Of a stretch of 37,590 nt of DNA, positions 1 to 26,894 are shown one piece after another (positions within the stretch are counted from its first letter, which is position 1; every line of letters begins with the position of its first letter). The stretch comes from Bacteroidales bacterium (GTDB taxonomy: Bacteria; Bacteroidota; Bacteroidia; Bacteroidales; WCHB1-69), in assembly GCA_031272415.1 (NCBI GenBank), contig JAISTU010000151.1:1-37590 (forward strand). Direction: 5' to 3'. The position numbers and the translations under genes were made by a program. The notes beneath the pieces are model-generated. The model made no database searches, was not told the DNA's origin, and saw only the letters and a list, made by a program, of their open reading frames with translations.

Positions 1-3000
1 GCATTCCCTACTTCGGCAACAGAATTAAAGACCATATTCATTGTGTTGTTGGAGAAATCCTCGTCAATAGGCAAGCCGAAACGCCCTGATACATAACTGT
101 ATAACAATGTGTCATCGTAAAGCATATTGTCGCCTGCAATATTTATAAAAATAGTGAAATCGTACCTGCCTGCCACCATAATGGGAAAGGCATTGCTCAA
201 TTCAATATTTAAAGTATTACCTGTATTCAAAGTACCACTCTTGATAACCGTGTCTATAGCCATTGCAATAGGTTGTGTAACTTGCAAGTGAATGGTCAAA
301 TTATCTTGCGAAAAATCAAAATTTTGATTCCCTGTGTTAGCAATTTTCAAATTCAATGCTGTGTAGTCAGGCAGACATGTTACATTTCCAAATGAAAGAC
401 CATCTAAAGTGGTGATAGTCAAATTTTTAGCATTGTATGGTATTACATATTCTGTAAAACGAATGTAAGTGGAATCGGTGATTATAATTGAATTGCCTAC
501 TGTATCACTAACTGAAAGAGAATAAATTACCTTACTGCCATAATATTGAGTAGGAATGTGTACCGACCATTTACCGTTGGCAAAACTCATTGGCAAAGAG
601 GTAGAAGTTACGTGCGAACCTACAATGCTTTGTATTTGCAATTGCGGATTAGAGTTGACATATAATGCCCCGCTACCTTCCATGATAACCGCATAAACAT
701 CAAACTCTTGATTATCAATAGTATCTGCAACAAACGGCGTTGTAAACCATGCCAAAGGAGATGCATAAAGTGTCATGCTGATAGTGTCATTCCAATTGAC
801 GGTTTCAGGGACACCGTTTACCATTTCTACCCATACTTTAATTGTTGTAGGTGTTCCGTCATATACAAAATTGCCGACAGTAACATCTTGCATTTCCATG
901 ATACCTAATGAAGGTACGGCAGTCCAAGTAGAACTGCCTTGGTCAATACCATTTTTACTCCATTTGAAAACGGCACTGTTAATATTTGTTTGCCCCATAT
1001 TGACTGCCTGTACTTTAACATAAAACGTTTGATGTATAACTGCTTGTTTTTCAGCAAAATCATTGAGCATTAAATCGGATGGACTTAATTCTACCGTGTA
1101 ACAGCCCAACTGCGTTTTTGCATAACGAGGCATTGCGTCAATATCAACGCTTACTTGTTCATCTTTATTACAAATCAATGCATCATCATATTGCATTTTT
1201 AAAGAAGAAGTAACATCGTTGAAAACGGGTAAAAATCTTACTGAATTTTTATCGGAAGTAACCGTTGTTTGCCATGCTGCGATGGATGTTTTTGCATTTT
1301 GTGCCCATCCTACATTTGTTGGTGCATACATATTGTTATCATCTATATCCCATTGACCGAGATAAGTAATTCCCGACAAATAGATAGGATAAGCCCCCGT
1401 GCCGGTCATAACAATATTGTTGTATTTAAAAATTAAAATATTTGCCGCATTATTAGCAATTTGTACGCCTCTTGGATTACCTGCTGTTGTACCTTCCACA
1501 TAAATAGAATTAAACAAAAATTTACCTTTTGCAGAGGCAATATTCATACCTTGATAATTGCCTGTTGTTCTGACGCGAACTTCATTGTTGATTATCAATG
1601 GTGTGTCAGTAGTATAAGTATTCCAAGAAGTAAAATACATACCTGTTGGACTGGTAATTGCTGTACTGCGTTGTTGAACACGATTGCCAATTATATCTCC
1701 TAATCCATAACCGAGATATAAACCATACCAACTTGTAGTTGTATTGGCGGTGCGACTTAAAACAGTATTATGCCTAACTGCTCCGTCTGAATAAGTGAAA
1801 TATACGCTGTATGAATAGGCATGAGTTACCGTATTGCTGTCAAAAACAATGTCTTTACCACGAGTAAGCGTCCCTGTACCTCCTGCAAAGTTAAAGCCGT
1901 AAGTTCCACCTCTAATAGTGTTTTTGATAAATGAAATATTGCTAACCACACCTGCGCTGCTTGCCTTATAAATGGGCATTATTGCAGCCGTGGAGACAGT
2001 ATCTGCCAAAATTTTGCATTCCCTAACCACTACATTTGTACAAGCACCTGTAAAGTTGATGCCGTAAGTATTAGCCGTTGTATTAGGAAGACGAACCGTT
2101 ATATTGCGGATGATAATATTATCGCTGTATGAAAGCGTAATACCGCTACCTGAATTGCAAATAATGGTAGCACTATCTGCATCCGTCGCCGCAGAAGTTA
2201 ATGTGAGTGAATATCCATTTAATACATTGTTAATGAATGCTAAATTAACATTTTCAGTATAAGAGCCTGTTTGCAATTCAAAAACAACATCTCCGACCGC
2301 CTGACATTGTTTTAATGCCAACACCGCATCGGCAATAGTAGCATAAACACCACTTGTACCAATAGTATAAGTACCACTAAACCCTGACGGACAAACCAAT
2401 GCCGTTTTTACAATCGTATCGTTGAGATGATTATTGTCCGTCAATATTCCCAAAGAGCCGATATTTACTTTCAATGTCAAATTACCTGTTACAAAATTGA
2501 TACCTCCAATGGTTATGGTATCGACACCGCCTGAAAGTAAAGTCCCGTTCCATGTAAAAGGAGTTTGAGCAACATTATTGACTTCCCAATCAAAGGTGAT
2601 TTCATTAACGGTGGTCGTACCTGTATTGACAACGATTACTTTTATTGGTTCTGATTGTGCATTGTAATACAAATTGTTCCAGTTAAGAATATCTGCTACA
2701 AAAACATCAACCCCAGAGGCAGAATTTAAACCGTGATAGCAACCCATACTTGTTACGGTAGAGCGGCTATTTCCCTCCATATCAAAGGGAACTGCTGCCA
2801 ATGAAGGGGTAGCAAAACCTGCGTAATTTGCCAATTCTAAATTTACAGTTGTATCCACAAAATCAGGCAAAATGCTTACCGAATGCAAGTCAGTGGCGAC
2901 CACACTTTGCCAATCGGCTATAGATGTATAATGTACGCCACCAATGTAGCCCACATCTGCGGTGCTATTAAGATTGTTGTAATCAAAAATGCAAGAACTG

Positions 3001-6000
3001 AGTATTGCTACCGAGCCCAGCCAAATAGGGGTTGCTTGTGCTGTATAAGTACATGGAATATAGAAATTGTTGTGCCGACAATCCAAAAATCCACTTTGAG
3101 GAGCCGCAAAAACAATGCCTTCACCTCTATATCCTTTTATATAAACCGAATTATGGAAAAAGCGAACAACACCGTCGCTAAAATCAAATCCTATTCCTAT
3201 CCCTGTGCCGGAGGGAGTTAATTTGATTTCATTGTTGGCAACTAATAAGGTATCTGTATAAGTTGCTTTAACGGCAGTAGGTTGTGCAGTCGCAGCAGTA
3301 CCTTGCCATACACGATTGCCGATAATTGAGCCTCTTGTATAACAGCAAAGAATACCTCCCCACGTCTGGTATGGTGCAAAAGTATTACTGCTTTTGATAG
3401 TATTGTAAGATAAACTGCCAAATGTTGCACGATAAATATAAATACCAAAATTATATGAATTGAGAATCGTGTTGGAGTCAATAATCATATAAGACCATGT
3501 ATTGCCTGTGCCTGCATAAAAATCTATCCCTGACGTGTTACCCTCCAACAGATTGTTGATGATAAATATGCTATCCGAAAATGTAGAATTGTCGGGATTT
3601 TTGATACATGCGCCTGATGTTTGCCCACGTGTAGCAGTAGTGGTCAGATTGCCCAAAATATGACAATCTCTTATTGTTACATCTCTGCAAGCATCTTTGA
3701 AGAAAATACCGTTAGAATTGTTATCGCCATCACTGACATCTATAGTTAATGCACTGATACAGAGGTTATTGCTGTTTCGTAACAAAATACCTGTTGTGTA
3801 ATCATGAATTGTTGCACTATCGGCATTATTTGCTTTGGAAGTTAATGTTAACCGATAGCCATTCATATAGTCGGACATATTGGTCATATCTACACTTTCG
3901 TTATACAATCCCGACTGTAATTTTAAAGCAATATCTCCGCTTACACCACAAACTTTAATGGCGGACAAGGCGTTGGCTATGCTTGGAAAATCAGCATTTG
4001 CATTGCCGATGGTGTAATCGCCGTTAAAAGAAGCATTGCAAATATATCCTGTTACAGTAAGAGTGTCATTTTTCAGATTGTCATCTATCTGACCAGATGA
4101 CAATGCACTGATATAGACTTCTATTTTTAGATTTCCTACCACATAATTGATTGTCCCTAAGGTAATTGTATCAAAATTTCCTGCGGGCATGTTTTTGTGT
4201 ACAACTGTTGGTTGAGATACACCATTGATTTTCCAATTGATAACAACAGTATCTAATGTATTGGCACCGTTATTAAATAAAAGTACTCTGACGTTGTCGC
4301 TTTGCCCTACAATGTGTCCGTCTCGCCAATCAATAATACCCACCAATGAGGCATCTGTATTGCTTCCGCTGTGGTAACAGCCTGCATTGGTCATGGCGGC
4401 ACGACTTTTATTTTCTATATCTACCGGAACTTCCGCCAAATAATGATGTATGCGTCCATTCGACTGTAAAACACTGTAATTGGTTAATTTTAAACTATTT
4501 GGCACATCTACAAAAGCAGGCAAAACGCTGTAAGAATTGTGGTCGGTAGGAACAATCGCTTGCCAATCACTTATGGAAGACACTGCCGCCGCTGCATAAC
4601 CTGCATAATTAGGCGAATACAAATTGTTGGCATCTATATCCCACATAGACAAACCTGTCAAACTATTAATATATATCGGATATGCTTGTTCGGACGGTAT
4701 TACAATATTGTTATATTTCACCGTTACAGGATTGGCAATGTTAAATATCCGTATGCCATAACCTAAACTTGAGCCGATATAAATAGAATTGTACAAAACT
4801 TTGACATTGGCATACGAAAGAAGGTCTATCCCTGCCGAACCGCTTGCATTGCTGAAAATAATTTCATTATTGGCAACCAAACCTGTATCAGTACGATTAA
4901 AATAGGATAACCTTAATCCTGTTGGTCCGCCGATAGCAGAGGAACGCTGTTGTATGCGGTTGCCGATAATCCTTCCACTACAATATTCGCTATAAAAACC
5001 AAACCATTGGGTAGTGGTATTCGCAGTACGACTTAAAATAGTATTATAAGACAAACTTGTAAAATCGGTGTATAAACTCAGCAGGCTGTAAAGATAAGCA
5101 TTTGTAATCGTATTGCTATCAATAACAGTACCTCCTGCATAGGCGGTAGTGTTTAATCCTCCTTGAAAATAAATTCCTGAATAACCGCCATCTACAACGT
5201 TGTGAATAATAGATACATTGGTAGCCAATCCTGTTGTTTCTTTGTTAATACCTTTGACAGAGGCTGTTGTTGTTGTCGGATTAACATATATTTTGCAATC
5301 TCTGATTAAAATATTATTGACTGCACCTGTAAAATTTATTCCATATCGGGTAGCGGTACCTGTACTTGCATTGATTGTCAATGCACGGATGGAAATATTA
5401 TCGCTATTTTTGAGTGTAAAGCCGGCACCTGTTGCAGGCAATATTATTACACTGTCAGCATCGTTGGCAGCAGAAATAAAAGTTAATGAATAACCACACA
5501 AATAATCGTTAATATTGGTCAAATCTACATTTTCTGCATACGAGCCGGAGGCTATATTCAAAGTAACATCTCCAATCATTCCGCAGGAAACAATAGCAGC
5601 CAAAGCATCATTGATAGTTGCATAAGTATTCCCCACACCTACGGATACTATTCCACTCAATGGAGTAATACATGTATAAAATGAATCCGAAAGCGTATCA
5701 TCAAAAGAATTATTGTCGGTAAGAGTGCCTCCGATATTGTCAACCCACACTTTAATATCTTGATTACCAGATACATACTGAAATTCTCCAATAATAATCG
5801 TATCATTGCTGCCCACAGGGAGTGTGCCTGTCCATATTTTGTGTGTTTTGATTGTGCCATTGATAGACCAATGAAGTTCTATATCCGTAAGGGTTGTATT
5901 ACCTGTATTGAGAACGACTGCTTTCAGCGTGTCCGTTTGTCCTGCTGCTGTTCCTATTGGTCGCCAGCCGAAAATATAAATCAATGACGCATTTGCACTT

Positions 6001-8597
6001 TGTGCCGCTATATGATAGCACCCTGTTGTTGTTATATTTTGTCGCAAATTGCCGTTTATATCCACAGGAACATCTGCATCTACAGACGCCCAAAAACCGG
6101 TGTAATCAGACTGCTGTAAATCTTGCGAAATATCTATAAACGAAGGCAATAACCTAAAAGATGTCCTATCTGTGGTTATCGTTGACCTGAAACTATAAAA
6201 CGTTGTATGTTCGGTAGTGCTTGTATATCCAATCACCGTAGGAGCATATAAATTGTTATGGTCTATATCATAACCGCTTACACTTGCAGAAATACTTAAC
6301 GGATATGCATATTGCCCCGCCATCACTATATTGTTATATTTGATAACATAACTGTAACCACTGCCAACTACATATATTCCGACAGGGTGATAAGTTGAAA
6401 CAGTCTGTACTCCACGCAAATAAATACTGTTATTTAATATTTTTGCATTAGAATATTGGATAGAAAGTCCATAAGATGTCGCCGTTCCGTAAAGTATCAA
6501 TTCATTATTGGCAATCACAGCCTCAGATACATATCTGTTGTGATATTCTGTATAAATACCTGTCGGTTGCGTAATATTGGTCGTATCCAATTGATAAAAT
6601 CGATTGCCGATGATGTCTCCTACACAAGACGAAAATTGCAATGGTTTCCATGCAGCAGGCGACCCGATAGTACGGCTATAAAAAATATTGCTTGCACAAC
6701 TGCTCAAATTCGTATTGACAAACATAGCACCGCTCTCATAACCTGTATGAATCGTATTGCTGTCAAAAACAATATTTGTGGCTGTGGTACCATCAAAGAA
6801 ATACACAGGAGCATAGCCACCATCAAAAATATTGTGTATCAAAGAAATAGCATTCAAAGACGCAGTTCCCGCTTTAAATACACCTCTTGATTGTGTACTT
6901 GCTCCGCTTGCAGAATTTGCCAATATATGACAATCTCTAACCACAATATCAGAGCATGTACCCTCAAATAAAATCCCCGCATTGTTGACTGCACCGCTAA
7001 CATCTATGGTCAAAAATTTTACTTCAATATTGTTACTATTGTAAAATCTAACTCCTACCACATTGTTGGTCAAAATAACGCTGTCGGCATTGTTAGCAAA
7101 TGAGGTCAAAGTCAATTTGTGTCCCATCATTAATTCAGAAACTCCCTCTAAATCAATACTTTGTGTGTAATTGCCCGATAAAAAATTCAAATTTATATCG
7201 CCTGATATGGTAATATAATTGAGTGTATTTTTAAATTGTTGCCAATTAGAGAAATAGCCGCCTGTTCCAACGGTATAATCTCCACTCAATCCGGTAACAC
7301 TACTATAAACAACAATCTTAATGGTGTCGTCATTTAATACATTGTCGGTTACACTATTAGGCGAACTTACGTAAGCAATAATTGTGTCAAAGTTGTCGGT
7401 TCGAGGCGTATAATTTCCCAAAGTAACGGTATCGCTCAACTCCCACGAGAGATTGTTTGACCAATTGATTTGAGGTTGTGTAACACCATTAACCGTCCAT
7501 TTGATAACGGCAGAGGTCAGATTGGCTAAACCTTTATTGCGTAAAACCACTTTTACAGGAGTAGAAACACCGCTAAAAGTACCTTTAAGAGAAGGTGAAA
7601 CAAAATTTTCCAATGCCACCGAATGCGTATCATAAACGATAGCAGAATTGAGTGCAACAGTATAATTTGCTATCGCTGTAGCCATATTTCCATTGCCATC
7701 TATCCCTGTAACAGAGTAGGATACATTTGTTCCGAGTGCAACTTGTGGCAAAGTGGCTCTCCATAATGTGTCGCCCCCTAAATTGTCCATTAAAACCGAG
7801 TCAATATGTGTAATGCTGTTGTAATCTGTCCTATATTTGAGATAGGGAGGTACAATGGCAGCAACAGTATTGCTTTTCACTTTGGCGGTAACGGCAACAG
7901 TTTTTCCACTATAAACCGTATCTTGCGGAAAGGGAGCAATAAATGCAACTTCCGGCGGCACAATTTCGCCTGTAGAGCAGGTCAATTCAAAATTATCAAT
8001 CAACCAACCGTAATTGATTTGTGTGCCGTTGATAGTTCCACGTTTGAGCCGAAATCGAAATTGAACTGAATTATCATATCCGACCTCGTAACTGACATCA
8101 AAAAACTCACTCTTCCACCACGATTGTTGTGGCATCATAAGGCTGTCCGCAGACTGCCATTCGACGTATGAAGTAGCGTTGAACCCCCTCAAAGCATAAT
8201 TGCTCGCCGAGCCTTTGTAACTGCTTGTCGGCAAGGGTGTCCAATCCGATGTGCTTGACATCTTGTACTCAACCAATATCGAATCCATTTGAGATACTTT
8301 GCATATATGCTTAAATTGCAATGCAACATAAGCAAAGTCGGTCAAATCGTACACAGGTGAGACAAGAATAATCTCGTCTCCGAGTACATTCGGTACTTCA
8401 GCCCAATAAGAATAAGGTGGCGTTGCGTAATAGTTGCCATTTGCCACCCAACTTTGGGCAGGTGATGTTGTAAATGAAACTGTATTACCGTCAAAATTTT
8501 CGGTAAAAGTCGTTCTTGCTACTTGGGCGAAGCCTGTCATAAGGCTCAAAATCATGCCCACTAAAATAATTGCTAAATGTTTACTTTTTTTAAGCAT
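1..8597 (-). CDS. Giant secreted/cell-surface protein, 3'-partial (C-terminus lies beyond the window start). It has a signal peptide, an N-terminal lectin/MAM-like head, then repeated parallel beta-helix (PbH1-like) and CARDB/Ig-like domains. Probably an adhesin and possibly T9SS cargo.
   Basis: Not in the supplied ORF track, which seems to list only ORFs closed inside the window. The minus-strand ATG at 8597-8595 gives MLKKSKHLAIILVGMILSLMTGFAQ (signal peptide). My hand translation stays open for 2865 codons to the window edge. Spot checks of plus-strand triplets starting at positions divisible by 3 found no TTA/CTA/TCA, and no listed minus ORF uses this frame. The protein is N/G/T/S/I/Y-rich, with beta-helix-type repeats (IIGNR, KYNNIV, DIDxNNLY) and CARDB-like segments ending in DNNxxNDT. 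Confidence 0.85.
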   Translation of the reverse strand, partial: MLKKSKHLAIILVGMILSLMTGFAQVARTTFTENFDGNTVSFTTSPAQSWVANGNYYATPPYSYWAEVPNVLGDEIILVSPVYDLTDFAYVALQFKHICKVSQMDSILVEYKMSSTSDWTPLPTSSYKGSASNYALRGFNATSYVEWQSADSLMMPQQSWWKSEFFDVSYEVGYDNSVQFRFRLKRGTINGTQINYGWLIDNFELTCSTGEIVPPEVAFIAPFPQDTVYSGKTVAVTAKVKSNTVAAIVPPYLKYRTDYNSITHIDSVLMDNLGGDTLWRATLPQVALGTNVSYSVTGIDGNGNMATAIANYTVALNSAIVYDTHSVALENFVSPSLKGTFSGVSTPVKVVLRNKGLANLTSAVIKWTVNGVTQPQINWSNNLSWELSDTVTLGNYTPRTDNFDTIIAYVSSPNSVTDNVLNDDTIKIVVYSSVTGLSGDYTVGTGGYFSNWQQFKNTLNYITISGDINLNFLSGNYTQSIDLEGVSELMMGHKLTLTSFANNADSVILTNNVVGVRFYNSNNIEVKFLTIDVSGAVNNAGILFEGTCSDIVVRDCHILANSASGASTQSRGVFKAGTASLNAISLIHNIFDGGYAPVYFFDGTTATNIVFDSNTIHTGYESGAMFVNTNLSSCASNIFYSRTIGSPAAWKPLQFSSCVGDIIGNRFYQLDTTNITQPTGIYTEYHNRYVSEAVIANNELILYGTATSYGLSIQYSNAKILNNSIYLRGVQTVSTYHPVGIYVVGSGYSYVIKYNNIVMAGQYAYPLSISASVSGYDIDHNNLYAPTVIGYTSTTEHTTFYSFRSTITTDRTSFRLLPSFIDISQDLQQSDYTGFWASVDADVPVDINGNLRQNITTTGCYHIAAQSANASLIYIFGWRPIGTAAGQTDTLKAVVLNTGNTTLTDIELHWSINGTIKTHKIWTGTLPVGSNDTIIIGEFQYVSGNQDIKVWVDNIGGTLTDNNSFDDTLSDSFYTCITPLSGIVSVGVGNTYATINDALAAIVSCGMIGDVTLNIASGSYAENVDLTNINDYLCGYSLTFISAANDADSVIILPATGAGFTLKNSDNISIRALTINASTGTATRYGINFTGAVNNILIRDCKIYVNPTTTTASVKGINKETTGLATNVSIIHNVVDGGYSGIYFQGGLNTTAYAGGTVIDSNTITNAYLYSLLSLYTDFTSLSYNTILSRTANTTTQWFGFYSEYCSGRIIGNRIQQRSSAIGGPTGLRLSYFNRTDTGLVANNEIIFSNASGSAGIDLLSYANVKVLYNSIYIGSSLGYGIRIFNIANPVTVKYNNIVIPSEQAYPIYINSLTGLSMWDIDANNLYSPNYAGYAAAAVSSISDWQAIVPTDHNSYSVLPAFVDVPNSLKLTNYSVLQSNGRIHHYLAEVPVDIENKSRAAMTNAGCYHSGSNTDASLVGIIDWRDGHIVGQSDNVRVLLFNNGANTLDTVVINWKINGVSQPTVVHKNMPAGNFDTITLGTINYVVGNLKIEVYISALSSGQIDDNLKNDTLTVTGYICNASFNGDYTIGNANADFPSIANALSAIKVCGVSGDIALKLQSGLYNESVDMTNMSDYMNGYRLTLTSKANNADSATIHDYTTGILLRNSNNLCISALTIDVSDGDNNSNGIFFKDACRDVTIRDCHILGNLTTTATRGQTSGACIKNPDNSTFSDSIFIINNLLEGNTSGIDFYAGTGNTWSYMIIDSNTILNSYNFGIYIYRATFGSLSYNTIKSSNTFAPYQTWGGILCCYTRGSIIGNRVWQGTAATAQPTAVKATYTDTLLVANNEIKLTPSGTGIGIGFDFSDGVVRFFHNSVYIKGYRGEGIVFAAPQSGFLDCRHNNFYIPCTYTAQATPIWLGSVAILSSCIFDYNNLNSTADVGYIGGVHYTSIADWQSVVATDLHSVSILPDFVDTTVNLELANYAGFATPSLAAVPFDMEGNSRSTVTSMGCYHGLNSASGVDVFVADILNWNNLYYNAQSEPIKVIVVNTGTTTVNEITFDWEVNNVAQTPFTWNGTLLSGGVDTITIGGINFVTGNLTLKVNIGSLGILTDNNHLNDTIVKTALVCPSGFSGTYTIGTSGVYATIADAVLALKQCQAVGDVVFELQTGSYTENVNLAFINNVLNGYSLTLTSAATDADSATIICNSGSGITLSYSDNIIIRNITVRLPNTTANTYGINFTGACTNVVVRECKILADTVSTAAIMPIYKASSAGVVSNISFIKNTIRGGTYGFNFAGGTGTLTRGKDIVFDSNTVTHAYSYSVYFTYSDGAVRHNTVLSRTANTTTSWYGLYLGYGLGDIIGNRVQQRSTAITSPTGMYFTSWNTYTTDTPLIINNEVRVRTTGNYQGMNIASAKGKFLFNSIYVEGTTAGNPRGVQIANNAANILIFKYNNIVMTGTGAYPIYLSGITYLGQWDIDDNNMYAPTNVGWAQNAKTSIAAWQTTVTSDKNSVRFLPVFNDVTSSLKMQYDDALICNKDEQVSVDIDAMPRYAKTQLGCYTVELSPSDLMLNDFAEKQAVIHQTFYVKVQAVNMGQTNINSAVFKWSKNGIDQGSSTWTAVPSLGIMEMQDVTVGNFVYDGTPTTIKVWVEMVNGVPETVNWNDTISMTLYASPLAWFTTPFVADTIDNQEFDVYAVIMEGSGALYVNSNPQLQIQSIVGSHVTSTSLPMSFANGKWSVHIPTQYYGSKVIYSLSVSDTVGNSIIITDSTYIRFTEYVIPYNAKNLTITTLDGLSFGNVTCLPDYTALNLKIANTGNQNFDFSQDNLTIHLQVTQPIAMAIDTVIKSGTLNTGNTLNIELSNAFPIMVAGRYDFTIFINIAGDNMLYDDTLLYSYVSGRFGLPIDEDFSNNTMNMVFNSVAEVGN
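750..7290 (-). repeat. Four tandem, diverged coding modules of about 1.63 kb (about 545 aa) inside the giant ORF
   Basis: Module-start motifs recur at about 7290 (SGDYTVGTGGYFSNWQQFKNTL), 5665 (SGIVSVGVGNTYATINDALAAI), 4030 (FNGDYTIGNANADFPSIANALSAI) and 2390 (FSGTYTIGTSGVYATIADAVLAL). Each is followed in the same order by GYxLTxxSxxxDADS, IIGNR, KYNNIV, DIDxNN(L/M)Y, GCYH and a CARDB-like domain. Boundaries are approximate. Confidence 0.7.
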
Positions 8598-8702
8598 CTT
8601 TACAAAATTTATTTATATATTGTTAAAATTAAAATTACAAAACAAAATTCGATTGATTTTTTACACCAACCGAATAGATATATTGAATTGATATACAGAG
8701 AA

Positions 8703-11823: not shown

Positions 11824-11922
11824 ATTGTCTGAACTATGATTTTGAATGATTTGCGTGATTTATATGATTATTTTAATCCTGTTAATTTTATAAACCTCAT
11901 AAAAAAATCACAGTTCACACAA
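11824..11922. mobile_element. MITE-like element of about 99 bp with terminal inverted repeats ATTGTCTGAACTATGATTT / AAATCACAGTTCACACAA
   Basis: The left end attgtctgaactatgatttt and right end aaaatcacagttcacacaa are imperfect reverse complements. The same element type occurs at 32171-32268 and 26708-26894. It has no coding capacity. Confidence 0.65.
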
Positions 11923-19385: not shown

Positions 19386-19553
19386 CAAAAATACACAAAT
19401 TTTTCAATTAAAAATTAAAAAACCTTTTTTTTCAATTGAGAATGGAGAATTGAGAATGATTTTTTTTGCATTTTGGTGCGAAAATGGGGAAATAAATAGA
19501 AAAATCTAAAATCGTAAATCTACACTCTCCACTCTGAAAAAAAAAGGTTTTTA
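19386..19553 (-). repeat. Promoter cassette copy C plus an inverted partner arm abutting the helicase stop codon
   Basis: -7 box caaaaata at 19386-19393, caattaaaaattaaaaaacc, T8, variant heptads gagaatggagaattgagaatga (19438-19459) and ttttttgcattttgg. The inverted arm tctacactctccactctgaaaaaaaaaggtttttaatt (19519-19553) runs into the TAA of the helicase gene. Confidence 0.7.
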
Positions 19554-22518: not shown

Positions 22519-23406
22519 TTATTCTATTAGTTTTTTCTCTTCAATTTGCAAAATTTGTTGCGTAGTTTTGTCAATTATATACGCAATTAAGTGGCAATGT
22601 GCTGTGTTCCATTGTGTTGTATTGAGTGCAATGGCAAACGCATTGATAGTCGTATCGCCGGCTTGCGAAATGCCGAGTGCTACTCCTTCATACGAAGTTG
22701 CTCCACATCTTAAAACGTGATTATGAACATAATCGCACATGGTCGCCAAATCTCCATTGGCAACATTTCCCTTTTGAGGTGCAACAATAGAATCTTCCAC
22801 TAATGCAACACAAATTCGAGCACCGGAGTCAATAGTACTCAAAAGGCTCGTTTTAACAAAAATACAAACCGTATCGTTGTGTATATCCGGTATAATTTGC
22901 AAGCCGATAGATGGTGCTTTCCGCTCAATGGAACGCATGGATGCCTCCCAATTAAGGTCATCTACCAAAGGTTTTGTGCCAAAGGTCAATCGGTTAATCA
23001 TTCCTTTGGGTAATCCGGCATCGGACGCTCCAAACGCATTATCAATTGCCGTTCCCATGTCGGTACGAAAATCGGTGGTAAAGGCACAATCTCCTCCGCT
23101 TGCATCGGGACGTGATAAACTGCCGGTATGAATGGAAACGACTATCAAAGTGTCGCCCATTGCAACTTTCATTTGTGCTGCTGTTCGTTGTCCGCGTGGG
23201 CAATTAGGGCATTTATGACCCGTAAAATCCTCCAATAAATACTTCTGTATCACATCATTAGCATTCAAAGGCGGAAACGTAGGAGTATCACAATACGTTA
23301 TCTCAACCGTCTGCGTAGAATACGGCTTCTCTATTTTATCACATGTGAGCAATAAAATCGCTACAAAAACCAACAAACTCTCTAAAATTAGAATCTTTTT
23401 AATCAT
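22519..23406 (-). CDS. Omp28-related thioredoxin-fold lipoprotein
   Basis: 295 aa with a lipoprotein signal (LLLTC) and LLEDFTGHKCPNCPRG, a CxxC motif in the context typical of the Omp28-related family. Confidence 0.6.
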   Translation of the reverse strand: MIKKILILESLLVFVAILLLTCDKIEKPYSTQTVEITYCDTPTFPPLNANDVIQKYLLEDFTGHKCPNCPRGQRTAAQMKVAMGDTLIVVSIHTGSLSRPDASGGDCAFTTDFRTDMGTAIDNAFGASDAGLPKGMINRLTFGTKPLVDDLNWEASMRSIERKAPSIGLQIIPDIHNDTVCIFVKTSLLSTIDSGARICVALVEDSIVAPQKGNVANGDLATMCDYVHNHVLRCGATSYEGVALGISQAGDTTINAFAIALNTTQWNTAHCHLIAYIIDKTTQQILQIEEKKLIE

Positions 23407-23449: not shown

Positions 23450-23545
23450 CAAAAATACACAAATTTATCAATTATCAATTAAAAACTTTTTTTTCAGAGT
23501 GTAGATTTTTTTTTTGCATTTTGGGATAAAATTGTTCTAAAAAAT
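23450..23545 (-). repeat. Promoter-bearing intergenic repeat cassette, copy D (upstream of the Omp28-like gene)
   Basis: -7 box at 23450-23457, caattaaaaac, T8, a short heptad unit cagagtgtaga (23495-23505), then tttttttttgcattttgggataaaattgttctaaaaaa. Confidence 0.7.
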
Positions 23546-23554
23546 GAAAAGCAG

Positions 23555-26044
23555 TCAATTAATAACTGCAGAAGGGGCTTGTTTTTCTTTTTCACGCACA
23601 AAATCCAACAAAAAATACACATATTTAAACAGAATTTTATAGTAATATTTCATGCTGCGACCTTGCTTGGCAAATTTTGTCAAAAGTGAATAAAAAAGAG
23701 GTATATTGGGGATAGGTATTACATTATTTGCCTCATCTATGAGAATAAAATGGTCAAAAAAACGAATTTCCATATTTCGGATATAAAAATTGCATAATTG
23801 ATACTTATGGTTGCCAATTTTGTCAAAAATGATAATAATAAATAAATTTTTTGTATATAATAACTCATTGAACTCCATATATTTACGTTTATTTCTCCAA
23901 TCAAAATTTTCGGCTTTGAAAAAACGATGTATTCTTAAACCTTTCTTATTTTCGTGCATCCATTGTGCTTTTATGCCAAAATGACAGCAGGCAACATGAT
24001 TATTAGGAATTATGATGGTGCAATTGTTGTTCGGCAATAGTTTTTCATACGCAAAACGGATGTCGCATCCATTGATATAACTTTCAGTTCTTGCCGTATT
24101 TTTGTCAAAAATTTCTTTGTTTTTCTTGTCAATTTTATCAATACATTCTTGCGGATTTTCTTTTAACCAATGCCTTGCAGGAAGATTTTTAATACATTTT
24201 GCTAACTTATTGTCATTCAATGAGTTTAATGCTATTCCAAGATACATAAACGGATGATACTTGGAGTTTTCAATTTTTATAATATATCCCATGTTTTTAC
24301 ATGTTAATGTTTTGGTATTGAAATGTTTATGCCCCATTGTTTCCCATTTTTCACCCCATTGTGTCCACTCTTTGTCTACACTTATCATGTATTTTTCAGT
24401 GGTAATTTTATTGACCAAAGCATAAAAATCTCTGTGATTGGGGTGATAATAACACTTTTCCGTACAAAATTTGCTATCGCCAAAATAGGTATAGCAAGTC
24501 GGTCGGCTGTGAAGATATGCTAATTGATAGGTGTCATTTTCAAATACTATTTCTGTCGGTTTATCCTCTTTTTGTTGTATTTGAATATTTTTATTCTCCA
24601 CTTCTTTTTCAAGTTGCAAAAACTTCGTTAATGCTAATGAAGCCATAGATTCAGTGAAAGATTCCACGCATGAACGTACATTTTTAAAATCTTCCAAATT
24701 TTTCAACAGGTATTCATATTTATCTCGACGCCCATTACCATAAATCACACGTGATGGCTTATAATTTATAATATCTTGATAATCATGTGTAATATAAAAA
24801 CTTTCTTCTCCACATTCTCGTTTGTACTCCTTTTTTTCTATTGTAGGAAACAGATATTCCAAAAAACAATGTTCATTGCGTTTTTTTTCAACAATAACAA
24901 CAAATCTTTTTTTTAGACGATCTTTGAGAGGCATAGTATAAGAGCAATGCAAACTCCCTTTCCCGTGACATACTTCTGTTTTTCCAAAATGAGCGTAACA
25001 AATACAAGGATTGCGAATATCTACAATCTTAAAAGTTTCATCTTCAAAAATTACTCCATATTCATTGTCAATAATTTCATTGATTATTGCAACTAATTCT
25101 GTTCTTTCGGACATCACCTCTGCCATATTTTTATTTCGCACATCCACTATCGACTTTAAATTATTGTATTGATTATTAACAAGTTGAAGGCATTGTGCTG
25201 ATAACTCTTTATGTATAGTCTCTATTGCTGCCCGCGATTGAGGATTTTTTATTGAATCTAATATTCGACCAATATGCATGCATCTGTCCATTTCGTCAGT
25301 AATATAAGGCTCATATTTTGAGGGATTATATGCGGCATATAAATTATAATAACGGCTTGAATATCCTTTTGTAATATATGATATTCTCTCCCCCTGCTGA
25401 CATGTCTGATAATCGCTCATGTATAATTTGGGGTTTTCTTCTTCATAATGCAATTGAAATTTCTTCTCGCTTTTTTTGAGGATTAAAATGTACAATTTTC
25501 CTTTTTTGTTATAACTTTCAAAAGTGTCTATATTTGAGGTCGTACACCATTGCGTACCCTTGCCATAAAGACAATTAGCGGCATAAGTTTTGGTGTGTAC
25601 CAATAAATAATCCTCATCTTCGTACAATTTTTCCGCCTCTTCATGTTTAATTTCTTTGATAATTTCTGTTTTGCTTTCAATCGGTGTTTCTATAAAATCT
25701 TGTATAACAACATACATCTCCGATAAGGATTTATATTTATTTAAATCATTGATTTTTAGTTGATTATGTTTTACTGCTTTATCAAATACAGGCAAATATT
25801 CTTCTGCTTTGTACAAATCTTCTGTTTTGAGGTTATCTGTTTTGTATAAATTGAGTAGCCATTTGGCATATTTTCCCATTTTTTTTGTCGCTATATTGCT
25901 CGAAATGCTATCCGTTTCCATAATTTGCCAAAAAACACTATCAGGCACAGTCGGGTAATACTTATAATGTATTTCGTCTGCGGGCATGTTTTTTGACGGG
26001 AAAAGACGCAATTGATAGCACGGCATAGGCTCAATATTTAACAA
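23555..26044 (-). CDS. Uncharacterised 829-aa cytoplasmic protein built from four repeats of a Cys-containing module (C-x-Y-x-x-FG-x4-C ... hydrophobic strand ... K-EK-[FY]-x-[LI])
   Basis: A long uninterrupted ORF with no signal peptide. Repeat cores lie at about aa 139-200, 330-397, 498-556 and 661-753 (nt 25445-25630, 24854-25057, 24377-24553, 23786-24064). The start is uncertain: Met1 overlaps the upstream gene by 14 nt, and Met7 (26026) or Met20 (25987) are alternatives. Confidence 0.8.
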   Translation of the reverse strand: MLNIEPMPCYQLRLFPSKNMPADEIHYKYYPTVPDSVFWQIMETDSISSNIATKKMGKYAKWLLNLYKTDNLKTEDLYKAEEYLPVFDKAVKHNQLKINDLNKYKSLSEMYVVIQDFIETPIESKTEIIKEIKHEEAEKLYEDEDYLLVHTKTYAANCLYGKGTQWCTTSNIDTFESYNKKGKLYILILKKSEKKFQLHYEEENPKLYMSDYQTCQQGERISYITKGYSSRYYNLYAAYNPSKYEPYITDEMDRCMHIGRILDSIKNPQSRAAIETIHKELSAQCLQLVNNQYNNLKSIVDVRNKNMAEVMSERTELVAIINEIIDNEYGVIFEDETFKIVDIRNPCICYAHFGKTEVCHGKGSLHCSYTMPLKDRLKKRFVVIVEKKRNEHCFLEYLFPTIEKKEYKRECGEESFYITHDYQDIINYKPSRVIYGNGRRDKYEYLLKNLEDFKNVRSCVESFTESMASLALTKFLQLEKEVENKNIQIQQKEDKPTEIVFENDTYQLAYLHSRPTCYTYFGDSKFCTEKCYYHPNHRDFYALVNKITTEKYMISVDKEWTQWGEKWETMGHKHFNTKTLTCKNMGYIIKIENSKYHPFMYLGIALNSLNDNKLAKCIKNLPARHWLKENPQECIDKIDKKNKEIFDKNTARTESYINGCDIRFAYEKLLPNNNCTIIIPNNHVACCHFGIKAQWMHENKKGLRIHRFFKAENFDWRNKRKYMEFNELLYTKNLFIIIIFDKIGNHKYQLCNFYIRNMEIRFFDHFILIDEANNVIPIPNIPLFYSLLTKFAKQGRSMKYYYKILFKYVYFLLDFVREKEKQAPSAVIN

Positions 26045-26543
26045 TCACATACTCATCGGTAAAAACATGGTTACTGTGGTGATTTTGGCGGTCAATGAGC
26101 CAACACTCAAAGCGAATAGTGTCCGTAGGAAAATATAACTCTCTTATATACCGTACATTAAGCGGGACTTCAATAGTGCCTGAAATAGATTCTTCCCCCG
26201 AAGACAACAAAGGCGTAACCCATGCGCCAAAACTGCCAAAAGTATCTACACAATGCCATTGTTCATTTTCTTTCAAAAAAAGCATAATCTTCAGATTTTC
26301 AGCCGTATCCGAAGGGCGTGGCGTCTCCCCAATATCACCATCACCGTCTGTAAATTTCAACAACAGTCGCAACTCTTCTATATTTTGAACACTTGCGATA
26401 TGCTCCAAACTTACAAACTCCAAATATGGCTCAACCGGATATTTATAATGCGGTTCGCAGGCTGTAAAAAAAAACCAACAAAACACCAACATTCCTGCTA
26501 ATCTCCATATAATCAATCTATTACTGTTTATGCTATATTCCAT
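26031..26543 (-). CDS. Hypothetical lipoprotein (170 aa), co-operonic with the 829-aa protein
   Basis: It has a signal peptide with a lipobox (FFFTAC), an acidic DGDGDIGE loop and a beta-rich remainder. A -7 box lies 24 nt upstream of its ATG. Confidence 0.65.
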   Translation of the reverse strand: MEYSINSNRLIIWRLAGMLVFCWFFFTACEPHYKYPVEPYLEFVSLEHIASVQNIEELRLLLKFTDGDGDIGETPRPSDTAENLKIMLFLKENEQWHCVDTFGSFGAWVTPLLSSGEESISGTIEVPLNVRYIRELYFPTDTIRFECWLIDRQNHHSNHVFTDEYVIVKY

Positions 26544-26567: not shown

Positions 26568-26707
26568 CAAAAATACACAAAAATTTAATTAAAAAATAAA
26601 AACCTTTTTTTTGCAGAGTGTAGAGTTTTTTTAGAGTGAAGAGTGAAGAGTGCAGAGTGTAGAGATTTTAGATTTAGGATTTTAGATTTTTCTATTTTTT
26701 TTTTGCA
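26568..26707 (-). repeat. Promoter cassette copy E-left with an expanded heptad array
   Basis: -7 box at 26568-26575, then aattaaaaaataaaaacc and T8. Heptads are gcagagtgtagag (26613-26625) and agagtgaagagtgaagagtgcagagtgtagaga (26633-26665). These are followed by the gattttagattt duplication and T10-GCATT. Confidence 0.75.
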
Positions 26708-26894
26708 TTTGTCTGAACCACGATTTTCATAAGATTTATGTGATTGGCAGGATTATTTTATGATTGTAAAGACGGTGCCGTCTCTATAATTCTCTTGTCT
26801 GAACTGTTGTCTGAACTGTAATTTGGAATGATTTTTTTGATTTGTGTGAAATCATAGTAATCATGTTAATCATTCAAAATCAAAGTTCAGACAA
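26708..26894. mobile_element. Compound or nested MITE copy carrying the GTAAAGACGG palindrome remnant and a tandem TTGTCTGAACTG duplication
   Basis: The left TIR is tttgtctgaaccacgatttt and the right TIR is caaagttcagacaag. The internal gtaaagacggtgccgtctctata is at 26767-26789, and ttgtctgaactgttgtctgaactg is at 26795-26818. Confidence 0.6.

Follow-up and report, generated by a model that had tools for sequence, protein, structure and literature searches.

A chromosomal Bacteroidales gene joins an intact domain of an uncharacterized viral family to three diverged internal copies of its core

Introduction

Contig JAISTU010000151.1 of the Bacteroidales bacterium assembly GCA_031272415.1 (GTDB lineage WCHB1-69) was analyzed over positions 1 to 37,590, and this whole stretch of 37,590 nucleotides is referred to here as the window. 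It carries, on the minus strand, a lipoprotein-like open reading frame (ORF) followed by a much larger one. The question raised by this locus is whether the two genes form an envelope-linked phage-interaction or defence system, as proposed in a preliminary description made from the sequence letters, or whether the large gene has a history of its own. The analysis indicated that the large ORF is probably (at a rough probability of 0.6) a horizontally acquired, phage-derived gene with an intact amino-terminal domain, the tail of which arose by internal triplication and extreme divergence, and which is read from the promoter of the lipoprotein gene. Confidence in this explanation is high for its descriptive part and low for the biochemistry.

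Four Related Modules in the Large Protein

The large protein had been described as four modules spaced 165–190 amino acids (aa) apart, each with an acidic strand, a Cys pair around a turn and a hydrophobic strand with a basic patch. All twelve motif strings quoted for these modules were found with that spacing, the acidic strands at aa 140, 331, 499, and 662, the Cys segments at aa 158, 349, 517, and 686 and the hydrophobic strands at aa 184, 381, 540, and 734. Self-BLASTP of the 829-aa protein gave no internal match at E < 10, and the repeats were detectable only with a family profile or by Smith–Waterman alignment with shuffles. A family hidden Markov model (HMM) was built from 76 homologous domain copies. 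The degenerate copies scored only 2–9 bits each against it and recurred at intervals of 163–191 aa: aa 291–342 of module 2 aligned to HMM positions 81–131, aa 471–554 of module 3 to positions 92–181 (8.3 bits), and aa 665–749 of module 4 to positions 117–180 (8.7 bits). Modules 2–4 thus lie in register with HMM positions ∼81–181, comprising the acidic hairpin, G-x-G-T-x-W-C, the hydrophobic strand, and K-Y-Q-x-H, which is the register proposed earlier.

When module 1 was left out, the remaining 614 residues (aa 216–829) scored 15.8 bits against the family HMM, the maxima of 1000 global and 1000 block shuffles being 10.4 and 11.5 bits, respectively. Smith–Waterman z-scores were 6.9 for modules 1 and 2 and 8.9 for modules 2 and 3 (reached by 0 of 500 shuffles in both cases) and 3.6 for modules 1 and 3 (2 of 500). 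Module 4 was weak in pairwise comparison (z ∼2.5), and its region (aa 667–797) matched the domain of the homologue P0056 by BLASTP with an E value of 7e-4. The linkers following the cores were weakly alike as well (S1–S2 and S1–S3, z ∼3.4), and the similarity of core and linker together points to a duplicated unit of ∼165–190 aa. A control with natural sequences used 186 segments from family members that lie outside the domain, and among these the tail of this protein alone rose above noise (15.9 bits vs. ≤6.0 for the others and ≤7.1 for shuffled sequences). The internal repeats therefore stood above shuffles in a statistical repeat test, and the four related modules were borne out by the family HMM, the shuffle tests, the Smith–Waterman z-scores, and the control. 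At the level of sequence, the repeats are confirmed: they are genuine and strongly diverged, and among the family segments compared they occur in this protein alone.

The tail copies have each lost a different part of the residue set that is invariant in the family. Module 2 has lost W, K, Q, and H, module 3 keeps C and T and has lost W, Q, and H, and module 4 keeps W, K, and Q and has lost C and H. A phmmer search with the tail (aa 205–829, 625 aa) against 1.84 billion cluster representatives retrieved nothing but the query protein. The AlphaFold2 model of the full-length protein, for which the alignment spans the N-domain only, had a mean predicted local distance difference test (pLDDT) score of 51.7, with modules 2–4 below 50, and was confident only for the N-domain.

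The Amino-Terminal Domain Belongs to a Viral Family

Homologues of the protein span only aa ∼20–204. There were 59 of them (E values from 1e-18 to 1e-74), sharing 40–57% identity with module 1; the identity was 50–57% to other chromosomal copies in Bacteroidia vs. 49.5% to the best viral copies. Pfam and NCBIfam searches with the large protein gave noise only. The isolated domain matched two PHROGs, phrog_28193 (E 3e-7) and phrog_17056 (E 6e-7), both of unknown function. Across 31 aligned sequences (the window domain and 30 homologues), phrog_17056 matched all 31 and phrog_28193 matched 26, with E values down to 7e-18 for homologues.

A likeness of the first ∼200 residues to proteins of large phages and giant viruses had been noted in the preliminary description, and it was verified by PHROGs, tblastn, Foldseek against BFVD, and IMG/VR. 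By tblastn against INPHARED, 11 PA5oct-like Pseudomonas jumbo phages were found (28% identity and E 5e-7 for the PA5oct match). Foldseek against BFVD gave 21 matches at E ≤ 1e-3 (best E 3e-10, probability ∼1.0, TM-scores only 0.3–0.5), including the PA5oct “structural protein,” Myoviridae sp. ctWb16, Caulobacter phage CcrBL9, and uncultured Caudovirales, as well as Marseillevirus LCMAC201/202 proteins annotated as ankyrin-repeat protein or glutamate-tRNA ligase. IMG/VR held 136 confirmed relatives, many on contigs of 100–518 kb, and several contigs carried two or three copies. A search of 185,579 species genomes yielded no more than 12 loci, seven of them in Bacteroidia; of the remainder, at least L019 represents the same contig as L055, a phage contig from IMG/VR. 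A tblastn search of 72,556 plasmids gave no match. The contexts of three homologues, P0040 (141 kb), P0046 (236 kb), and P0050 (56 kb), resemble large phages, with many ORFans and UvrD, ClpB-like, KTSC, Dam, RtcB, Thg1, and Macro genes. The domain family is overwhelmingly viral, occurring in jumbo phages and giant viruses.

Multiple copies were also observed on single contigs. Three adjacent domain copies are present at L021 3319–9449, on a contig binned as Candidatus Dojkabacteria, three at L067, and at least two on one 367-kb IMG/VR contig (L024/L026). At L024 and L025, the domain lies within uninterrupted open frames of ∼2000 codons.

The domain is almost always N-terminal, or else repeated at ∼500-aa intervals in proteins of 880–1430 aa, and is followed by a non-conserved tail. 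Most tails had no Pfam match, and the recognized ones are mostly repeat-type binding modules, namely, DUF4116 (five members), WG (four), TPR (two), LRR, and Sel1, with an ankyrin tail in a marseillevirus member. In P0046 (L010 10001–12178, on the 236-kb phage-like contig), the N-domain is fused to an InPase domain and to the Pfam family “Type I Thoeris inhibitor Tad6.” A preprint (10.64898/2026.01.28.702374) counts Tad6 among those anti-defence proteins against Thoeris that act by blocking an active site for NAD processing. This fusion links the family to anti-defence functions, and a conflict-related role for the domain family is plausible. The InPase region of P0046 also matches PHROGs annotated as DarB-like antirestriction protein, minor head protein, and virion structural protein.

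The proteins of PHROGs 17056 and 28193, including PA5oct EST35_0205 (A0A4Y5JTQ7; 133 bits with the family HMM and a Foldseek E value of 3e-10 to the window domain), share the same ∼185-aa N-domain followed by a non-conserved tail. They are viral and ∼420–680 aa long, with tails unrelated to the domain, whereas the window protein is chromosomal and its tail consists of three decayed core copies, an arrangement found in no other family member compared. Tandem duplication of the domain within one polypeptide also occurs in P0002–P0018 (880–1430 aa, from metagenomic phage-like contigs). In these, however, both copies are full-length and intact (240–320 bits each) and lie ∼500 aa apart, whereas only the core half was duplicated here. 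For the PA5oct gene EST35_0205, the annotation as a virion protein comes from electrospray ionization tandem mass spectrometry, and the gene belongs to a block of genes for such proteins. The omics paper on PA5oct (PMC7318152) makes no mention of paralogues, duplication, a gene family, or gp203/gp205. A comparative review of jumbo phages (PMC7824862) mentions none of PA5oct, PcfJ, DUF4116, InPase, or WG repeat, and its sole “variable C-terminal” passage concerns rIIA.

Conservation and Predicted Fold of the N-Domain

All 19 invariant columns of the family alignment are kept in the window domain, including W62, D76, D100, A156, G161, W166-C167-T168, Y178, L184, K195, Q197, and H199. The conservation of the core is mostly polar: E142, D143, W166-C167-T168 (77 of 77 copies each), Y178, K195, Q197 (77 of 77), and H199 (73 of 77). 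Only part of the Cys pair described earlier could be upheld. Position 167 holds Cys in all 77 copies, but position 158 does so in only 49 of them (Ile in 23), so neither a conserved Cys pair nor a Zn site is a feature of the family. Apart from C167 and H199, the family copies contain no further conserved Cys or His; with no second conserved Cys and no set of four metal ligands, a Zn-type Cys motif was not sustained. The single invariant Cys and the near-invariant His among polar residues suggest a candidate catalytic or ligand-binding pocket.

AlphaFold2 modeling of the N-domain with a 31-sequence alignment gave a pLDDT of 91 and predicted a six-helix N-subdomain followed by a beta-beta-alpha-alpha-beta-beta core. 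A Foldseek search of this model against the PDB found nothing (best E 0.6), and a profile HMM search of the domain against the PDB gave no match. Readings of the core as PD-(D/E)xK, beta-beta-alpha-Me, or papain-like, prompted by the order of the motifs and the secondary structure prediction, were rejected owing to the misfit of topology and the lack of a fold match.

The only named family with any signal is PcfJ (PF14284), which is an unproven lead and not a membership. PcfJ-like proteins such as PcfJ of pCF10 show a like order of an acidic strand, a helix, G-x-x-x-(H/W)-C, Y/H, G, and a hydrophobic strand with a basic patch; the N-terminal helical subdomain of the window family is not shared. 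Alignment with hhalign gave non-significant E values of 0.22 with the pCF10 PcfJ sequence and 0.095 with a 28-sequence profile over 51 columns in register, and a phage PcfJ-like protein was weakly matched by Foldseek in BFVD (E 0.03, probability 0.47). PF14284 gave no match at E ≤ 1 for the window protein and was not among the best 25 of the 51 families at E ≤ 1 for the 31 aligned sequences. In pCF10 (L103 15874–17984), pcfJ adjoins a gene annotated as Cas9 inhibitor AcrIIA9 family, which hints that PcfJ-like proteins also occur in anti-defence neighborhoods.

MuF-type minor head proteins and P1 DarB-like proteins are modular virion-borne effectors in which the N-terminal module is conserved and the C-termini are polymorphic. 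The window family would share this logic of a conserved head and a variable tail, to which the PHROG matches of the P0046 InPase region and the PA5oct virion member may be compared. It has no sequence or fold relation to the MuF/Dar proteins, and the likeness in packaging or injection is by analogy only.

Gene Organization, Transcription, and Origin

Both ORFs of the preliminary description are present on the minus strand (Table 1). Whether they overlap or abut, as had been reported, varies with the start codon chosen for the large ORF. From TTG 26044 (829 aa), it overlaps the stop of the lipoprotein gene by 14 nt; from ATG 26026 (823 aa), the start called in an independent sample assembly, it begins 4 nt past that stop; and from ATG 25987 (810 aa), the start annotated in GenBank for this metagenome-assembled genome (LBR36_06610, Bacteroidales bacterium), it begins 43 nt past it. 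The 810-aa protein P0001 is 100% identical to the large ORF. A signal peptide or a membrane segment was not seen by eye in the large protein. The 170-aa ORF shows by eye a basic n-region (R9/R14), a hydrophobic stretch (residues 15–26), and an FTAC lipobox with Cys29 (codon at 26457–26459), and it is plausibly a bacterial lipoprotein. Its 16 homologues, of 164–180 aa, are from Bacteroidales, and it had no match in Pfam, NCBIfam, PADLOC, or the PDB (the last by phmmer).

Upstream of the lipoprotein gene lies a promoter cassette formed by CTACACTCTG, an A-run, and TTTGTGTATTTTTG. The TAnnTTTG within TTTGTGTATTTTTG is a −7 box of the Bacteroidetes type. In the window, the exact 14-mer TTTGTGTATTTTTG occurs only at 19386, 23450, 26568, and 30383, each time 25–60 nt 5′ of a minus-strand ATG, the starts served being those of the GH3, Omp28, lipoprotein, and mutS genes. 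The TTTGTGTATTTTTG motif is absent before the large ORF. Since the promoter motif is present only ahead of the lipoprotein gene, the two genes are probably co-transcribed from it, in keeping with the shared cassette that had been claimed.

The pairing itself was not conserved. The lipoprotein HMM gave no match within about 6 kb of the domain in any of 97 loci, and none of 5 lipoprotein loci was matched by the domain HMM; in three contexts, the lipoprotein homologues are stand-alone genes beside unrelated housekeeping genes. Hence, the proposal of a functional pair found no support, and the pairing looks accidental and not like a conserved system. The guanine–cytosine (GC) content of the large ORF is 31.3%, that of the lipoprotein gene 38.8% (host-like), and that of the flanking genes 36.5–41.3%. 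The low GC content suggests horizontal acquisition of the large ORF, and the GC contrast together with the unconserved pairing is most simply read as a foreign gene that landed behind a resident one.

The neighbors are mutS and tsaB upstream and genes for an Omp28-family lipoprotein, a polysaccharide flippase, a RecD-like helicase, GH3, an aminotransferase, and a nitroreductase downstream. Prophage or defence genes were not seen in the window, and the domain does not lie in a viral genome here; the claim that a virus-associated domain is fused into a protein of a bacterial chromosome thus agrees with these housekeeping neighbors. Searches of PADLOC-DB 2.0 with the two window proteins and four homologues matched no family at E ≤ 0.01, and the neighborhood is neither a defence island nor a prophage, so that a defence-type function was not supported at this locus. 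Elsewhere, 3 of the 7 Bacteroidia domain loci adjoin defence-type genes: L012 (L012/L001 6343–9425) genes for WYL and for a PDDEXK_4 protein, L014 (1890–7083) genes for PDC-S26 (PDDEXK_4) and an IetA-like AAA ATPase, and L022 (5083–9225) genes for AAA_21 with RloB and for Abi_2. L022 retains only a 90-aa domain fragment, with a TPR ORF ahead, and at L020 only part of the domain is present, in two neighboring partial ORFs. L013 and L016 are not beside defence-type genes.

The same 3.2 kb is present in a second sample (Logan SRR14710912, L104) at 99.9% nucleotide identity, with the large ORF intact. The two sequences differ by three single-nucleotide polymorphisms (SNPs), at 23595, 23816, and 23846, all within the last ∼100 codons of the large ORF (N733K, I743I, and R817H, two of them nonsynonymous). 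The lipoprotein gene and the N-domain show zero differences.

Weighing the Possible Explanations

In the favored explanation, the front ∼185 aa are an intact member of the viral domain family, and the usual tail has been replaced in this lineage by three internal duplications of the ∼165–190-aa unit of core and linker, the copies of which have diverged almost beyond recognition and lost parts of the W-C-T / K-x-Q-x-H set. Having no promoter motif of its own, the large ORF would be transcribed from the native lipoprotein promoter by an accident of insertion. The N-domain would be the active module, in which the invariant polar cluster around C167, with H199, may form a thiol-dependent catalytic or ligand pocket. 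In viruses, the variable C-terminal repeats or effectors would aim the N-domain at targets in host takeover or counter-defence, and at least one phage appears, by annotation, to package such a protein in its virion. In the bacterium, the protein would reside in the cytoplasm as a leftover or co-opted copy related to conflict, with module 1 as the only competent copy and modules 2–4 as structural or binding pseudo-domains.

Several observations weigh against this explanation. The position of three of the seven Bacteroidia loci beside defence-type genes could reflect a host-beneficial role instead of a passive remnant. Modules 2–4 could be functionless, and the alleles come from a single lineage, in two near-identical samples differing by three SNPs. 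The catalytic reading of the Cys derives from the conservation pattern, the Foldseek and profile searches of the PDB having been empty, and a biochemical function is known for no family member. The virion association comes from the annotation of one phage.

By analogy with MuF-type or capsid-targeting proteins, the N-domain might instead be a non-enzymatic module for virion incorporation or scaffolding with variable cargo, the chromosomal gene being a functionless remnant that has drifted since its duplications. The detection of the PA5oct homologue by mass spectrometry in a virion-protein block and the minor head, virion structural, and DarB-like PHROGs matched by the P0046 InPase region would agree with such a module, and a tail that has no homologues anywhere searched and holds all three SNPs in its last ∼100 codons, two of them nonsynonymous, would agree with drift. 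The invariant polar residues (D76, D100, C167, T168, K195, Q197, and H199 in 73 of 77 copies), however, suit an active or ligand site better, and the family also occurs in giant eukaryotic viruses with an unrelated virion architecture. Moreover, an open frame of 2.5 kb in AT-rich DNA is unlikely to last without selection unless it is very recent, and this explanation is considered rather unlikely.

A second alternative supposes that the domain was captured from a jumbo phage and domesticated as a decoy or interference protein. Its one live and three dead copies would titrate or poison a partner of the phage proteins, such as that for virion incorporation or a host target, and so protect the bacterium against phages carrying the family. 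The tandem degenerate copies, unique to this chromosomal gene among the 186 family segments, the ORF whose 2.5 kb, at 31% GC, have stayed uninterrupted in both samples, and the slightly greater closeness of the N-domain to the chromosomal Bacteroidia copies (50–57% vs. 49.5% for the best viral copy) all fit such a history, as do other Bacteroidia copies in defence-island-like spots. Defence islands, however, also gather mobile-element debris and anti-defence genes, the window is not a defence island, and some of the Bacteroidia copies are fragments (L020 and L022), which points to decay over selection. A protective decoy of this kind is considered improbable. A more specific version is doubted more strongly still: the N-domain would be an undescribed “warhead,” either a thiol-dependent enzyme or a ligand binder, that jumbo phages and giant viruses use in conflict with their hosts by way of polymorphic targeting tails. 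Termite-gut Bacteroidia would have captured it, and the window copy, with one live and three dead cores, would serve the host as a decoy or interference protein against these phages.

Finally, the lipoprotein and the four-module protein might cooperate at the envelope in phage interaction or defence. Such a system would suit the tight coupling of the two genes, the single promoter motif 5′ of the lipoprotein gene, the virus-associated domain, and the PDC-S26, IetA-like, WYL, AAA_21/RloB, and Abi_2 genes beside other chromosomal Bacteroidia copies, but it is very improbable given the failure of pair conservation (0/97 and 0/5 loci), the stand-alone lipoprotein homologues in housekeeping contexts, the gap of 7.5 GC points between the genes, a large protein with no signal peptide or membrane segment by eye, the empty PADLOC search, and the housekeeping neighborhood of the window.

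Features of the Locus and the Surrounding Window

Table 1. Positions in the window of the two genes, the modules of the large protein, and the nearby signals.
Feature	Position	Strand	Remarks
Large ORF	23555..26044	−	up to 829 aa; ORF list
Lipoprotein-like ORF	26031..26543	−	170 aa; ORF list
Module 1, intact family domain, aa 22–204	25433..25981	−	HMM 214.9 bits
Module 1 helical subdomain, aa 22–135	25640–25981	−	
Module 1 alpha/beta core, aa 136–204	25433–25639	−	holds E142-D143, W166-C167-T168, K195, Q197, H199
Module 2, degenerate core, aa ∼291–395	24860..25174	−	FEDETF strand, GKGSLHC, FVVIVEKK
Module 3, degenerate core, aa 471–554	24383..24634	−	FENDTY, GDSKFCT, FYALVNK, KYMIS
Module 4, most diverged core, aa 665–749	23798..24052	−	GIKAQWM, LFIIIIFDK, HKYQLC
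Promoter cassette upstream of the lipoprotein gene	26568..26623	−	CTACACTCTG, A-run, TTTGTGTATTTTTG
−7 box TAnnTTTG	26568–26575	−	within TTTGTGTATTTTTG
Terminator-like hairpin	23541..23569	−	overlaps the large ORF stop codon; then TTTTCATTTT
Next promoter cassette	23450–23504	−	for the Omp28 gene

The promoter cassette is highly stereotyped in this genome. Upstream of both the Omp28 and the lipoprotein genes, TTTGTGTATTTTTG is preceded by the CTACACTCTG motif and an A-run; sites of the CTACACTCTG motif are listed at 23495, 26614, and 26653 (minus strand), with 11 motif matches vs. 0.7 expected. The Omp28-family outer-membrane lipoprotein gene (22519–23406, minus strand) shows a weak thioredoxin-like N-terminal signal and, as it has its own cassette, is transcribed separately. 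Scanning the window for Rfam families and tRNAs yielded no hits.

An open frame of at least 2870 aa (3–8612, minus strand) runs off the window start and has a signal-peptide-like MLKKSKHLAIILVGMILSLMTGFAQ near its N-terminus; it probably encodes a giant surface protein. A dispersed intergenic element consisting of GTTCAGACAA and an inverted copy ∼88–180 bp apart was observed at 11825/11913, 26709–26894, and 32172/32258. GTTCAGACAA had nine matches vs. 2.6 expected, four of the copies lying in the 440 bp that separate tsaB from the lipoprotein gene, and the element looks like a repetitive extragenic palindromic (REP) or miniature inverted-repeat transposable element (MITE) type.

Significance

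The gene is a new architectural variant of a catalogued, functionally unknown viral family. The gene pair is ordinary, and the “operon” at this locus is not a new system. The window protein represents an orphan sequence arising through internal duplication followed by runaway divergence. The chromosomal copies in Bacteroidia, three of seven by defence-type genes and one of these a fragment, form a natural test of the domestication of viral genes. The viral domain family is widespread, from Pseudomonas, Caulobacter, and gut phages to marseilleviruses, with 136 or more IMG/VR relatives, and has no Pfam entry or solved structure. It combines a strikingly conserved polar motif, W-C-T ... K-x-Q-x-H, with polymorphic tails that include an anti-Thoeris domain. 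The family is a worthwhile target for structural and biochemical work, and its characterization could reveal a new activity in host takeover by phages and giant viruses.

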